Made by a program: the position numbers and the translations under genes
Shown: in pieces, positions 3,156-63,365 of the stretch
Layout: the number at the start of each line of letters is the position of its first letter
How positions within the stretch are numbered: position 1 is the first letter of the stretch
Origin: Eledone cirrhosa
Taxonomy: Eukaryota
Direction: 5' to 3'
Length of the DNA stretch: 64,000 nt
Assembly: GCA_964016885.1 (NCBI GenBank)
Contig: OZ024741.1
Coordinates: 225,680,001-225,744,000 of the forward strand
The notes under the pieces: model-generated
Seen by the model: only the letters and a program-made list of their open reading frames with translations
What the model was told of the DNA's origin: nothing
Databases searched by the model: none

Positions 3156-5300
3156 CTAAGTTGGGTCAAAAACTCTATTGGCGAAGGAATTAGCCCTTCA
3201 ATGTTGACAGCTAATGGTTACCTCAGTTCTATCGTTAATTGGTAGAGGTCTTGATAGAGTTATGTAATACGCTTTCGTAACACAGAGATCACAAGATTTC
3301 CTTCGTCCATTGAACGGTTGTGCCCTAGCTACGATATCCCATTTTAGTGATTGTTGAACGTTGTTTAATTTAAGGTTTTTAATGAGCCTAGCTAGCGATG
3401 TCGAACATCTGTTGCTAGGATCTCGGAAGGAAAAAGAGTGCGCGTTATAGCGTACCTTAAAAGGGTTAGAGGTAGACCCGATGTAAGAGCTGGTATTCGA
3501 AGCAGTCTCAACTGTGCACCTATAGACTATGTTGGGTGTCAGGCAGTGTCCATTTAATGGGCATGCATTGGGGTAGCGGCAGTTGCAGTTGCTTCTGCGG
3601 TTAGTGAGAGTAGGGTTATTTAACCTAAGCAGTTGGTCCGTGCTAGAAGGATTAGATGGGGGAGGTGTGCTACTAGAGTAATTATTGGTGTAGTGGCGTG
3701 GTGTATTTGATAGGAGTGGTGGTACCGCGGTGTGGGAGTTATAGTGTCTTAGCTTATGATGGTTACTGAACGCGATGTGGCTAACTAGGTTAGGTGTAGT
3801 GGAGAATGAGATTTTAATGTTGTTTTTAGTAAAGAGTTTGTAATATCTATGGTTAGGGGGGAAGTGTTTGGATAGGATAGAGAAGCGATTGGGGATATTA
3901 GTGGCTAGATTAGATGAGAATGGTGGGTTAAGCTAGGTGATATTTCTAGGCCTATTCTTTCTAGGGGTTCTAGTGGAGTTGGTAGGGGCCTTCCTAGGGT
4001 TATTATTACCTGGGGGTTTGTTATTTGTCATCCTATTTCTCATTCCTATTCTAGGGTTGATTCTTAGTTTGCTACTAGGAGTGGGGAGCAGGCCGCTGCC
4101 ACCATTAAAGTTCCCAGTATAGGTGCTGTTACTGCTAAAATTCCGGCGAATCTGGCTATATGCTAAGGTATTACTAGTTCTAGTGTTAATTTTATTATGG
4201 TGAGTTGCTGTGTTATGGCATTTTGGTATGTAATAAATTGATTGTTTATAACCAGATTCAGAGAGAGCCTTATTATAATATTGTGCGTGGTTTATAAATA
4301 TCTCTTCATTTGCTGATAGCATTGAGATCCTATAGGAGATAGATTTGATTACTGCTCTGATGACTGCTGGTGGGTGGTTAGAGTGTGAGCTAATATATGT
4401 GAGTATTTCGCCTGGTTTATGGTAAGGGTTATAAAGGTTATTGTTGAGATCAAGGGTGACGTCTAGGAAGTTTACTACTTTATGGTTCAGCTCGATGGTG
4501 ATAGAGAGACCGTTATTTTTGAAGAATCTATGAAGTTGTTTCTTAAGCAAATCGATTCCCCGATTAGTGCAATTGTGGACTGCAAATAGGGCGTCGTCCC
4601 TGTATATTCCACCTTGCATGGGTTGTATTTCGGCTCTGATGTTACGTAATAGGTAAATCCCAACTAAAGCGGTGACTTGCGCGGAATCGCTTGAGCCCAT
4701 CGTAATGTCAAAGTTATCTGTTCTATCTTTTCTAGACCAGAGTGCTCCGTTGAATTCAATGATAGTCTGCCTAGCCATGAGTATGATGTTAATCTCATTA
4801 TTGGTTATGTCCGAGTTGGTGGTTGCTAGGGCTAGTGCTTTGTTGAGCAGTTCCTGGGTTATTGACGCGTAATAGCTGTCTATATCAAATTGGATGAACC
4901 TCATAGATTACTTGGACCTTAGATCGGAGAACCATCTGATGACTTGGCCGGTGTTGGACCACAACTTGTAGGTGGTATTATCCCGTAGCCCAGGGATTAT
5001 CCTATCAAGGATGTTCTTACTGATGCGGCCCAGGTCAGATGTGGTTGGGCTTATGAGGCTAATGGATGGGTTCTCTATAAAGTTTGGCTTGTGGTCCTTG
5101 AGAGAGAACCTTGGGGTTGTTGGTACATAAGGGTGGGTAAATCTATCCAAATGCAAGTCCTTAACCAAAGCCTGGGCTTTTCGGTTAAGTACGTTTACAG
5201 TTGAGGGTGTAGTTTTTTAATAGTTTTTGTTGAGTTCTTTAAGAAGGAAAGAGTTGTAAATTTCAGGAGTCATGGTGTATAGATTTTTGGTTTTGTCAGA
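3156..5300 (-). pseudogene. Penelope-like RT and GIY-YIG endonuclease frame with in-frame stops
   Basis: One frame throughout: SDKTKNLY, FIQFDIDSYYASI, MGSSDSA, GIYRDD, VNFLDVTLDL, PYHKP, SNHPP, *LNPPFS, CNCRYPNACPLNGHC, IVY..YIGST..FKVRY..H, CDLC. Stops near 5218, 4908, 3933 and 3198; no frameshift seen. Confidence 0.9.
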
Positions 5301-16172: not shown

Positions 16173-17639
16173 CTGAAATGACATAAGTAAATAGGACCAG
16201 ATATATCGATTAGTGTAGCCATGCATATACATGTATATATAGTCGGATTATATATATGTATGTATAAAAAACAAAACAATAACAAAGGACACTTCTATAT
16301 GACACTATGACATAATAATTGTTTCTACTTTTGACACAAGGCCAGCAATTATCCCAGTGCATTACTGGTACTGTATTTTATCGACCCCGCAAAGATGAAA
16401 GGCAAAGTTAACGTCGATGGGATTTGAACTCAGACCGTAAAAGAGAGTAACTCTATGATACAAAGCATGGCTTCCGACCCTCTATCTATACTGTCAATAT
16501 ACCGCCTTATTATTAATGTTTTCATAATTATAATGGCTTCTGCTTTAGGCACAAGACCAAAAATATTTGGGGAGGGGAATGTCGAATAAATCGATTCCAG
16601 TGTGTTACTGGTACATTATTTCATCGAGCATGTTAGGATGAAATGCAAAGATAACGTCAGTAGGATATGAACACTGAGAACGTAAAGGGACGTAACTATG
16701 CCACGAAACATGGTCTCCGACGCTCTACCGATACTGCTAATCCACCGATAAACTTTTCCCCCAAAAGATTGAATACCTATAGCTGGAATATATTTGATCT
16801 AGGTTTGCCCGCATAGAAGATACCTTGGGATAAACAACAGAAGCAACAGCATCTTATTATATCTTACTATTCCTTTCGTTCTTTGGGGAAACAAATTCGG
16901 GTATGGATTCAAAAAAATATATAAAAACTATAGCCATCACTCGCAATCAAGTATGACATGATAGTATGTACCATGCTTTCACCAAGGGATTTAGATGCCC
17001 ATGTTGCTGTGAGCAGACACAGACACCCTCTTGACACTAACTCCTTTGATTCAGAAGAACATCAAGAATGTGGCAGCTGGAAGGTGAAAGAGATGCACCA
17101 GCACTGGGTTGGAACTATTTTAGTCGGCCCCAAAAGGATGAAAAGTAAAGTGAAACTCGGTGGGATTTGAACTTAGAACGCAGAGACATAGAAATATCAA
17201 ACGCTTTAAAGACATTGCCGAATCTACCAACTTATAGAAGTATATAGTGGGTTAGTTATTTTGTAGCAAATAATACACACATATACATAGTAAGGGAGAA
17301 AAAGAGATATAGCGAGACTGATCAGAGTATGTAATGTTATACATACATAAATAGATAGCTCTTCTCATAATATATACGAGTGTATATATATTCAGAAACG
17401 CACACATATACATATAAACACACACACACATGTATGTATATATATACATATATATATATACATACATATATATATATTGTATATTATATATATACATATA
17501 TATATATTCTTATCTCACTTCTCTCTCCCTCTCTCTACCTATCTCTCTATATATATACGCACACACACACGCACACACACACACATATATATATATATGG
17601 GAGTGGGTAAGACACACACACTCACACATATTCCCTGAT

Positions 17640-18913: not shown

Positions 18914-18919
<6 letters not shown>

Positions 18920-19378
18920 GTAATCTGGGTTTTTCGAATATTAATAATTGTTTCTACTTTAGGCACAAGGCCAGCAATCACTCAGTGCATTACTGGTAAT
19001 TTATTTTATCGACCCCGTAAGGATGAAAGGTAAAGTCAACCTCGGCGGGATTTGAACTCAGATCGTAAAGGGACGTAACTATGCTGGAAAGCATGGCGTC
19101 CGACCCTCTACCGATACTGCCAATCCACCGCCTTATTTCGAATATCAATAATAACATTCGATTCGTTTGCAATTATGCAAACAAGCCTCAAATTTATAGC
19201 CATGTCAGTAGAATGAACACTTCATTCTTGCTCTTGTGGGGTCGATAAAATAAAGTACCAGTAATGTACTGGGTAATTGCTAGCCTTGTGCCAAACGTAG
19301 AAACAATTATTAATATTCGAAAAACCCAGATTACATTTATTGTATTCAGCCATGTAAAGCGAAATTTTCCTTTTTATA
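18914..19378. mobile_element. Head-to-head inverted composite of a SINE and a tail element between (TA)n tracts
   Basis: 18914-19016 is inverted at about 19238-19340; full SINE on minus at about 18945-19133. Confidence 0.75.
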
Positions 19379-19387
19379 TATATATTC

Positions 19388-20302
19388 GAATTGGAGCTCT
19401 GAAATAGCAATATATATATGGATGTATATATAATGTATTTTACAATACACTGTATGCTTAATTAAAAGCATTTTGAAGACCGTATGCTATTGTTTTAGAG
19501 TAGTGACAAATTTACTTACTTTAATTTCAGCAAACAGGGGAGATAAGCCGACAAGACCTTGTTTCGCATTTATTGATGCTTATCAAGGCTAACTACTCCC
19601 TCCTGTCTGCCGAGATTACTGATGTTATATTCTTACAGAATTTTAGTAAATAATCAGGAACTGATTATACAGAGCGATTGTTGGTCAGGCAGAAATTAAA
19701 AATTAGAATTGGAGCTCTGAAATAGCAATATATATATGAATGTATATATAATGTATTTTGCAATACACTTTATGCTTAATTAAAAGCATTTTGAAGACCG
19801 TATGCTATTGTTAGCCTTGATAAGCATCAATAAATGCGAAACAAGGTCTTGTCGGCTTATCTCCCCTGTTTGCTGAGATTAAAGTAAGTGAATTTGTCAC
19901 TACTCTAAAACAATAGCATACGGTCTTCAAAATGCTTTTAATTAAGCATAAAGTGTATTGCAAAATACATTATATATACATTCATATATATATTGCTATT
20001 TCAGAGCTCCAATTCTAATTTTTAATTTCTGCCTGACCAACAATCGCTCTGTATAATCAGTTCCTGATTATTTACTAGAATTGTATAAGAATATAACATC
20101 AGTGATCTCGGCAGACAGGGGGGAGTAGTTAGCCTTGATAAGCATCAATAAATGCGAAACAAGGTCTTGTCGGCTTATCTCCCCTGTTTGCTGAGATTAA
20201 AGTAAGTGAATTTGTCACTACTCTAAAACAATAGCATACGGTCTTCAAAATGCTTTTAATTTAGCATAAAATGTATTGCAAAATACATTATATATACATC
20301 CA
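19388..20302. mobile_element. Retrozyme-like 318-nt HHR-bearing monomer in tandem and inverted array
   Basis: gaattggagctc at 19388 and 19706; HHR cores at 19817 and 20135 (period 318); strand switch near 19812; (TA)n at both ends. Confidence 0.85.
19813..19857 (+). ncRNA. Type I hammerhead, U3-A8 core (also 20131-20175 plus and 19546-19590 minus)
   Basis: agcc UUGAUAA gcau-caauaa-augc GAAA caa-gguc-uug UC| ggcu; all three stems pair. Confidence 0.85.
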
Positions 20303-20313
20303 TATATATATAT

Positions 20314-20430
<117 letters not shown>

Positions 20431-20468
20431 TACACACATATAAATACATATATGTACATATATATATA

Positions 20469-20536
<68 letters not shown>

Positions 20537-21049
20537 TATGTATGAGAAATGAAATTTCGTTTCATTTTTTCCGTTTATATATACATATATATATACATAT
20601 ATATATGTATATATATATATGTATATATATGTACATATATATCTCTCTCTCTATATATATATATCTATATATATATGTATATATATATATGTATATATAT
20701 GTATATATATATATATATGTATATATATGTATATATATATATGTATATATATGTATATATATACACATATATATACATATATATGTATATATATATATAT
20801 ATACATATATATACATATATATACTGTATATATATGTGTGTGTGTGTGTATCCCAGGTTCAATCGGGGGTAACCACAGTAAGTATGGTACTCAATACACA
20901 GTAGAGTGTATAATGTTTGATATAGAAATGGCCTCTACCTCTACAGGAATAGAACTGTTTAATTCGAAGGAAATCATCAGGAAATCAACCTGGCTTTCCT
21001 GATGATTTCCTTCCAATGCAACAGTTCTAGTCCTGTAGAAGCCATTTCT

Positions 21050-27166: not shown

Positions 27167-27797
27167 TTATTCCTTTATTGTAACCCATTTGGTTCTGGCT
27201 CCTCTATATACTCTGATTTTATCTCTCTGATTGTAACCAGAGAACTGCATACGGTGGATGAAGTGTTGTATGTGTCTCTCTAGTTCTTTGGGGTTGCACA
27301 TGCGGGACACGTTTCTCATCACCCGTACCAAATCCGCAATCAGTATGTTGATTTTGGTGTGGTCCGAAACAGCTGAGTTTCGGTGGATCAGATATTTGGA
27401 AGTCATGGGTTTGGCATAATGGGAATGGAGGATCAGTTTTTTGTTATTGATAGTATCTAACCAGAGCTCTGTGTCTAGTACAGGTAATCGATGGTTGGGG
27501 TGTTTGCTTGGGTAGTCTATAGTAACTCTAATACTCTGGTGGACGGAGTTAGCTATTTGCTGGATGCTTTCCGCGGTGTTTTTCTCTAATTCCTGACTGT
27601 TCTCTAGTGTGGGTGTTTTTACTACGATGTTTATATCATCAACGTAGCGGGAGTACATTATCAGGGTTAAGAGGTTGTTGTCTTCTAATTGTTCTTTAAG
27701 TTTAAGTTTAAGTCTATTAAGTTTAAGTCTATTAAGTCTATTAAGTTTAAGTCCCACCATACCATGAATAGGTTAGCTATGTCACTTCCAATGCTTA
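27167..27797 (-). mobile_element. Penelope-like RT fragment of a second clade
   Basis: YSRYVDDINIV..DYPSKHPNHRLPVLDTELW..HYAKPMTS..SA..K..IL..RVMRNVS..MQFSGY. Confidence 0.8.
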
Positions 27798-30671: not shown

Positions 30672-31268
<597 letters not shown>

Positions 31269-31269
<1 letters not shown>

Positions 31270-61292: not shown

Positions 61293-63365
61293 GGAGGTGA
61301 GTTTTATTGTGTAGTACAATAAAGCAATGCAGATATCGGATAAGAGGCAATCTACAGTTTGTAGGACTGGAGTATAAATAATATATAAGAACAAAAGATG
61401 GTTAAAAGAGTTCCATGTATTTTATTATGCGCATTTCAAAAACAAATATCATCATGCAATAATATTTGTGTTTTCATCAGATAAAACAGGAAGACATGAT
61501 ATGAAGGTTAAAAAACACTTGTGGATAGTGCAGTTTTAAATCAACATATGAAAAGTAGTTTTAGATTGATGTGTGATATTGGGAAACAAATATTTATTTT
61601 GAGGGGGGTGGGGTGGAAAGGAGGAAAAAGAGGAGGAGATGAGAGTAAAAAGTGGAGAGGGAGGAGTATAATGAGGAAGGATGAGATAGGAGGAGAGATG
61701 GGTGATAGAGAGAGAGAGATAGCTTTTATAACTGAGAAAGATATATTGTTTTACATAGAGAGGTTGAAAACCGTTGGAAGATAATGTATAAATTAAAAGA
61801 ATTTGAAAATTAACGAAGAGAAAAATAATGTAAAGTTAAGGTTTGTATATTAAGGGGTTTAATAATATGTGCGATGAAAAGAAAATGTTAATATGTATTA
61901 AGAATAATATTTAAGGGTTTAATAACATGTGCGATGAAAAGAAAATGTTAATATGTATTAAGAATAATATTTAAGGGTTTAATAACATGTGCGATGGAAA
62001 AGAAAAAGTTAATATGTATTAAGAATGATATTAAGGGTTTAATAATATGTGCGATGGAAAGAAAATGTTGATATGTATTATTAAAAAGAATAACAGGTAG
62101 TTTAAGTAAGGATATATTGTGAGATGAGCATGAATGAGTTAGATGAAAGGGAGAAAAAAATAATGAATTGAGGATGAATAATCTAACGTCAAAAAAATGT
62201 TTTCTATCTGCTTGCATAAATTCCACAAAACATTCCACAAAGTATACAGCTAATATTCTTTATCAATTTAGAATCTTTTTCTCAAAGGCACATATATATA
62301 TATACACTTCTTTAAAAATATACCCATCTTTCTACCTTATTTCAAAGGTTATTATACATTCTATAATACTTGTTACTCATTCTATATATCGCTCCTATTT
62401 ATCACTTCCCTTTTTTCTCTTTTTCTTTTAATGTCTAAACCCTAATCTGTACCTTTTCTCACTGTTGCCTAACATAGAATCAATTATTACATAATACAAT
62501 ACATTCTTACTCTATATCACCTTGTAAAAATCCTTCGTAAACAAACATTTTTTTGACGTTAGATTATTCATCCTCAATTCATTATTTTTTTCTCCCTTTC
62601 ATCTAACTCATTCATGCTCATCTCACAATATATCCTTACTTAAACTACCTGTTATTCTTTTTAATAATACATATCAATATTTTCTTTCCATCGCACATAT
62701 TATTAAACCCTTAATATCATTCTTAATACATATTAACTTTTTCTTTTCCATCACACATGTTATTAAACCCTTAAATATTATTCTTAATACATATTAACAT
62801 TTTCTTTTCATCGCACATGTTATTAAACCCTTAAATATTATTCTTAATACATATTAACATTTTCTTTTCATCGCACATATGATTAAACCCCTCAATATAC
62901 AAACCTTAACTTTACATTATTTTTCTCTTCGTTAATTTTCAAATTCTTTTAATTTATACATTATCTTCCAACGGTTTTCAACCTCTCTATGTAAAACAAT
63001 ATATCTTTCTCAGTTATAAAAGCTATCTCTCTCTCTCTATCACCCATCTCTCCTCCTATCTCATCCTTCCTCATTATACTCCTCCCTCTCCACTTTTTGC
63101 TCTCATCTCCTCCTCTTTTTCATCCTTTCCACCCCCCCCCCTCAAATAAATATTTTTTTCCCAATATCACACATCAATCTAAAACTACTTTTCATATGTT
63201 GATTTAAAACTGCACTATCCACAAGTGTTTTTTAACCTTCATATCATGTCTTTCTGTTTTATCTGATGAATGCACAAATATTATTGCATGATGATATTTG
63301 TTTTTGAAATGCGCATAATAAAATACATGGAACTCTTTTAACCATCTTTTGTTCTTATATTATAT
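61288..63365. mobile_element. Large non-coding HHR element, ~820-bp inverted arms (61381-62202, 62543-63362), same family as 25632-26056
   Basis: HHR 63256-63324 plus and about 61418-61488 minus; internal 60-bp minisatellite mirrored in both arms; left tail matches 25632-25720. Confidence 0.9.

Follow-up and report, generated by a model that had tools for sequence, protein, structure and literature searches.

The locus raises the question of how a short, ribozyme-bearing repeat that changes strand in its middle came to be inserted, and from which RNA template. In the window (the whole stretch of 64,000 nucleotides that was analysed), the original prediction described a non-coding 318-nt unit running for about 1.3 units on one strand, switching near 19812 at a short gtt overlap and running for about 1.5 units on the other. 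This description was confirmed: the unit (19854-20171) is in tandem in both arms, the arms measure 1.35 (minus strand) and 1.58 (plus strand) units, and the overlap is an exact GTT of 3 nt. The features are as follows, unit positions being numbered from the predicted cut site.

19384-19812, minus strand: left arm, 1.35 units (429 nt), 97.4% identity to the unit
19810-20311, plus strand: right arm, 1.58 units (502 nt), 99.4% identity to the unit
19810-19812, no strand: exact 3-nt GTT overlap joining both 5'-truncated arms, a microhomology-type junction
19854-20171, plus strand: cut-to-cut 318-nt monomer with strong self-pairing (z = -7.1 linear, -7.2 circular)
19384-19409, minus strand: 26-nt tail, unit positions 141-166, at the left end only
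19376-19385, no strand: left remnant of the (AT)n target
20289-20835, no strand: (TA)n target tract on the right
19810-19866, plus strand: type I hammerhead 1 with U3-A8 core, predicted cut after 19853, distal 5' strand of stem I lost at the switch
20118-20190, plus strand: type I hammerhead 2, complete, with near-palindromic stem III, predicted cut after 20171
19531-19603, minus strand: left-arm hammerhead, predicted cut between 19550 and 19549

The left arm begins at unit position 56 and its outer 3' end lies at position 166 (long end); the right arm begins at position 275 and its outer 3' end lies at about position 140 (short end), where it runs into an AT run. Since the right end is ambiguous inside this AT run, 20302 is also acceptable as the end of the right arm. 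The 5' ends of the arms thus meet centrally and the 3' ends face outward into AT runs, the outer ends differing by the 26-nt tail (positions 140 versus 166), a feature absent from the original prediction. No target-site duplication is discernible at the right (TA)n tract. The arms differ from each other at several sites; in each of them, position 129 reads T in the upstream unit and C in the terminal one. The unit has no ORF, and no stop-free frame of at least 150 codons is found over the locus.

The original prediction placed one hammerhead in each unit, with cleavage after 19853 and 20171. The motif belongs to type I and has the core UUGAUAA (U3-A8), and both positions are supported as predicted cut sites. 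Three hammerhead-like motifs matched the Rfam model Hammerhead_HH9 (HH9) below its gathering score (E values 0.0015, 0.037 and 0.037), and no Rfam match reached the gathering score in the whole 64-kb window. The motif is not a chance occurrence, because TTGATAAG-N12-CGAAAC is found 4,692 times in the genome versus 17 times for the reversed control. In an alignment of 14 haplotypes from three related families, hand-picked among the motif matches, 94.8% of 249 cells were paired and 7 of 18 pairs showed a two-sided change, including U3-A8 to C3-G8; as the sequences are related, these changes represent only a few independent events. The putative hammerhead fold is supported by this compensatory pattern. 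The loss of the distal 5' strand of stem I in the first plus-strand ribozyme, caused by the switch, had not been noticed before. Hammerhead-like motifs whose sequence is unrelated to the unit were also encountered (L273:1864 and 2204; L272:627; L050:4566 and 5033; L139:703; L062:3246), some of them in diverging or tandem pairs, and further families are likely.

In the commonest haplotypes stem III forms a palindrome of 10 nt, and the sister family has a different palindrome. For 10 of the 14 haplotypes, the fold predicted for a single ribozyme has the core paired to the 5' half of stem III (probability at least 0.83). For the right arm, the predicted energies, which take no account of tertiary contacts, are -130.6 kcal/mol for a double hammerhead, -122.9 kcal/mol for two single active folds and -137.9 kcal/mol for the blocked fold. 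The blocked helix covaries too, a signal confounded with the stem III palindrome. On folding energies, the monomer ribozyme is predicted to block itself, and a double hammerhead formed in tandem RNA would be more readily activated.

Other permuted multimers were expected in the genome (3.0 Gb), and two-armed insertions are indeed present across the family. At least 164 matches to the unit were obtained from 39 scored of 1,400 candidates, exact long-end junctions number 371 and many subfamilies are present. Insertions of this kind number in the hundreds to thousands in the genome, whose AT-microsatellite density and SINE-like repeats would resemble those of octopus DNA. A search for the parent PLE yielded three related families, plus further variants, all of which consist of non-coding units. 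Within a set of 85 loci, chosen because their arms were long or their ribozyme intact, 60 are two-armed insertions and all 60 diverge. The 3' ends in this set cluster at positions 140 (57 arms), 166 (41) and 171-173 (27), and the 5' ends of 147 arms are scattered over the whole unit. Both ends could be classed in 48 two-armed insertions, namely 44 short+long, 4 long+long and no short+short; a further 12 have one end unclassed. Because the 85-locus set was selected, 60 loci anchored only on the exact long end were added. In this end-anchored set, 59 of 60 arms were mapped and 50 have an inverted partner, whose end is short in 46 cases, long in none and other in 4. The sister family (about 82% identity) gave 12 short+long, 1 long+long and 6 other among 19 pairs, and a further 20 loci counted by eye gave 9 short+long, 1 short+short (L266, an exception to the rule) and 2 other, the complex locus L274 being left out. 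Duplicate loci (L018, L019, L025, L026, L030 and L106), arms below 88% identity (below 91% in the allele test by unit index), AT-run and indel-prone positions and L249, in which no main arm was mapped, were excluded from the counts.

Most 3' flanks of the family are (AT)n. The 122 central junctions comprise 68 with filler or unassignable bases and 54 direct joins, and 21 of the 54 direct joins overlap by at least 3 nt, versus 6.8% at random. Inheritance of whole two-armed units was considered and rejected: 4 identical junction pairs between different loci do occur among the 122 junctions, but they are read as favoured microhomology joins because their unit counts differ. Classical twin priming on one linear RNA was also set aside, the 5' end of one arm not tracking the start site of the other. 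The position of the switch just beside the hammerhead, pointed out in the original prediction, is incidental, given the spread of the 5' ends of the 147 arms over the whole unit. The strand switch is the inverted 5'-truncated copy known from Penelope-like elements (PLEs); it is the norm in this family and not a ribozyme landmark.

A PLE insertion is described as a partial tandem that has an inverted, 5'-truncated copy next to it, lies in a microsatellite target and carries a tail of 30-40 bp, often at one end only; how the inverted copies and one-sided tails form is there called still undefined (Craig et al. 2021, PMC8557442). In vitro, a PLE protein cuts and extends both strands and starts at two internal RNA sites, the spacing of which equals the tail (Frangieh et al. 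2024, PMC11167929). The same signature is found in the retrozyme, namely an inverted 5'-truncated copy at the 5' end (60/60 diverging; a partner in 50/59) and a one-sided tail with 3' ends at 140 versus 166-173 (44/48; 46/50). Mobilisation by PLEs, as originally proposed, is supported by this rule of two-armed ends and by the tail.

We consider it probable, from these insertion features, that the repeat is a non-autonomous PLE-mobilised retrozyme, inserted into (AT)n by an RT/GIY-YIG protein that primes from both target ends. A Penelope-like RT/GIY-YIG protein would cut the (AT)n target, and each target 3' end would prime cDNA at one of two internal RNA sites; both cDNAs would then pass the ribozyme cut site, halt at near-random points and be end-joined into diverging arms. 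The usual template would, with about equal probability either way, be a re-ligated monomer circle. This scheme is based on the fixed 3' ends at about 140 and 166-173 nt past the cut site, on the microhomology or filler at the central join and on the presence of one haplotype throughout the units of both arms.

A young PLE in the same genome (L132) encodes an RT and a GIY-YIG domain with a CxxxxCxxC linker, and would be of Neptune or Nematis type by the definition given in PMC8557442. Its family includes several copies with 96-98% identity to it, and the genome contains its ribozyme 31-mer 6,467 times. It has a U3-A8 hammerhead and (AT)n targets, the last 7 nt of its long end are the same as those of the retrozyme, and 6 of 7 diverging pairs in its family have short+long ends. 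Since no homology could be aligned between the 318-nt unit and the L132 repeat, this element is a candidate partner only; no homology of the unit to a PLE terminal repeat was found among 35 GIY-YIG loci of 10,596 candidates either. The possibility that the retrozyme is itself an autonomous PLE was rejected, the unit having no ORF and no PLE coding sequence being found within 300 nt upstream of 272 arms. In the window, a two-armed remnant of the L132 family (30897-31269), with a U3-A8 hammerhead on each arm, a short end on the left, a long end on the right and AT runs, provides a comparator for the insertion rule. Furthermore, frames at 3201-4907 and 27170-27772, both on the minus strand, resemble fragments of a retroelement RT by eye, possibly of a PLE; the frame at 3936-4907 had no Pfam match.

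The original prediction took the more-than-unit-length arms to imply reverse transcription around a circle. Such arms are not specific, as the insertion of the autonomous PLE L132 also exceeds one unit and the long arms of L111 and L118, whose terminal partial units carry no private variants, fit DNA-level duplication after insertion; arm length alone thus proves no circle. For the same reason, arm-wide private variants, with 74 identical pairs versus about 2 expected, were dropped as proof of a rolling circle; that 9 of 10 such variants are missing from the other arm counts against the proposed scheme. Other observations bear on the template. End-anchored arms pass the first cut site in 43 of 59 cases, the second in 10 and the third in 3, and 5' ends do not stop in excess at the cut site (9 observed versus 8.2 expected). 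In 568 of 604 cases (166 insertions), all units and both arms of an insertion carry the same subfamily allele, a pattern that a monomer bottleneck would explain simply. Stops after whole turns, a possible signature of a circle, number 9 versus 2.0 expected in the end-anchored set and 1 versus 2.8 in the first set, and are given little weight because the test was post hoc and unreplicated. The T/C pattern at position 129 would not be explained by one monomer circle without conversion or parallel mutation. Overall, a circular template appears plausible, the balance being about even.

The same two-ended PLE insertion could instead have copied linear tandem RNA that was transcribed from arrays or multi-unit loci and left uncut, with arm length regenerated by DNA-level duplication, so that no circle would be needed. 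Uncut RNA is indeed the main substrate of an Anolis PLE in vitro (PMC11167929), DNA-level duplication is visible in the long arms, the unit-specific allele at position 129 is common to both arms of the locus, and a large array exists: a satellite of a retrozyme subfamily covers at least 60 kb (C8:32199001-32259000, L112-L117) with at least 189 units and higher-order duplications, a nearest-neighbour divergence of 0.26% and a mean divergence of 4.1%. This array bears a 1-nt insertion in the stem III palindrome, which is found in 5 of 248 dispersed loci; these carry the root haplotype of the array and not its commonest internal variants, although two of them share one or two minor ones. The array was discarded as the master of the dispersed copies, and the evidence favours its putative descent from one dispersed insertion with its stem III variant. 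Alleles common to both arms show no in-register excess (8 in, 9 out, p 0.34, 119 insertions), which lends no support to aged linear templates, and no position-specific alleles by unit index, the sign of a heterogeneous master, were found at 15 polymorphic sites. The ribozyme 30-mer of the window type is balanced between strands (94 and 92), so the assembly contains no large one-strand array bearing exactly this motif, and the ribozyme is maintained by compensatory change. We hold an uncut linear template to be somewhat unlikely.

A cut linear monomer could also have served, if the RT, on reaching the 5' end of one RNA, switched to the 3' end of that molecule or of a second one and so built multimers. 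Two haplotype patches alternate between the units of a five-unit arm (L107:1494-3133), which may reflect either template switching or duplication of a chimeric dimer, and there is a mild excess of stops in a broader interval around the cut site (23 versus 16 expected, P 0.057). However, the 5' ends do not pile up at the cut itself, successive units align across the cut site with no recurrent indels and haplotypes show the uniformity reported above, so that this template is improbable. That the switch is a local inversion, fold-back repair or an assembly artefact of an ordinary tandem repeat is very improbable, since, although the locus lies between long AT runs that are difficult to assemble, its arms differ at several sites and the family data already contradict this, the 122 junctions being nearly all at different positions, always diverging and with fixed asymmetric outer ends.

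The original prediction also held that cleavage would release an exact monomer from this locus. Read-through RNA of both arms is predicted to form a hairpin of about 400 bp (-685 kcal/mol) in which stems I and III of both plus-strand ribozymes have probability 0, and the locus is a doubtful source because this hairpin would block them. Release of an exact monomer would require transcription to start inside the right arm, the first ribozyme of which lacks distal stem I. Judging from these predicted folds, the locus probably represents a product and is less likely to supply monomers.

The identification as a retrozyme made in the original prediction is supported by the 318-nt tandem unit, the type I hammerhead, the multiple copies and the absence of an LTR pair or coding capacity. 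The repeat is multi-copy and mobile, with a two-armed structure instead of LTRs, and by every testable feature of sequence and insertion it would belong to the non-LTR retrozymes. It resembles those described in metazoans (Cervera and de la Pena 2020, PMC7229834; Li, Clavereau and Pollet 2026, 10.64898/2026.07.22.740005) in its tandem non-coding unit of 170-400 nt with low GC, in its single type I hammerhead per unit and self-paired monomer, and in the coexistence of dispersed dimers and a large array with PLEs in the same genome. The main texts of both papers describe direct tandems and make no mention of inverted arms or tails; unlike those retrozymes, the present family, as seen in genomic DNA, mostly consists of two diverging arms with a strict short+long rule, (AT)n and a U3-A8 core.

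The likeness to EN+ PLEs covers the partial tandem, the inverted 5'-truncated copy and the one-sided tail (PMC8557442), as well as two start sites downstream of the hammerhead and AT-microsatellite targets (PMC8557442; PMC11167929). In contrast to EN+ PLEs, there is no ORF here, the whole unit is 318 nt long and the tail measures 26-33 nt; and whereas the same start sites are used on both strands in vitro (PMC11167929), one site per end is seen here. A U3-A8 variant core is reported for the hammerhead of a schistosome PLE (Cercyon element; Cervera and de la Pena 2014, PMC4209133). The hammerhead of the repeat shares with those of PLEs the covariant U3-A8 core, the palindromic helix III and dual motifs 100-700 bp apart on opposite strands, but differs in its long stem I with an internal loop, its 10-nt palindrome and its self-contained non-coding unit (PMC4209133). 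PLEs already provide examples of the strand switch, of the tail and of the U3-A8 core. No report of these features on a retrozyme family, and none of the almost invariable pairing of a short with a long end, was found in the literature covered (main texts, with few subscription papers).

The case for mobilisation of animal retrozymes by PLEs was earlier based on shared ribozymes, co-occurrence and the phylogeny of terminal repeats; the present family contributes the integration signature itself. The short+long rule constrains how PLEs generate inverted copies and one-sided tails, and a 318-nt RNA with mapped start sites offers a small substrate with which circle and linear forms could be compared in an existing in vitro assay. 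A bolder reading, advanced tentatively and rated as less likely than not, is that a dimer of the PLE enzyme would cut both strands of the target and take circular ribozyme RNA as its natural template, starting at the long site on one end and at the short site on the other. The enzyme would roll past the ligated cut, and the circle would survive because the core stays paired with the stem III palindrome as long as tandem RNA has not brought two ribozymes together. If so, the family would be a read-out, thousands of events deep, of the PLE integration cycle, and would also record how retrozyme circles escape self-cutting.

Two other repeats were observed in the window. Directly to the left of the retrozyme lies a separate element (18915-19339) with 107-nt inverted arms (92%) and a SINE-like core that recurs at 17119-17185, and a large inverted pair at 61700-63020 contains 3.9 copies of a 60-nt tandem unit per side.
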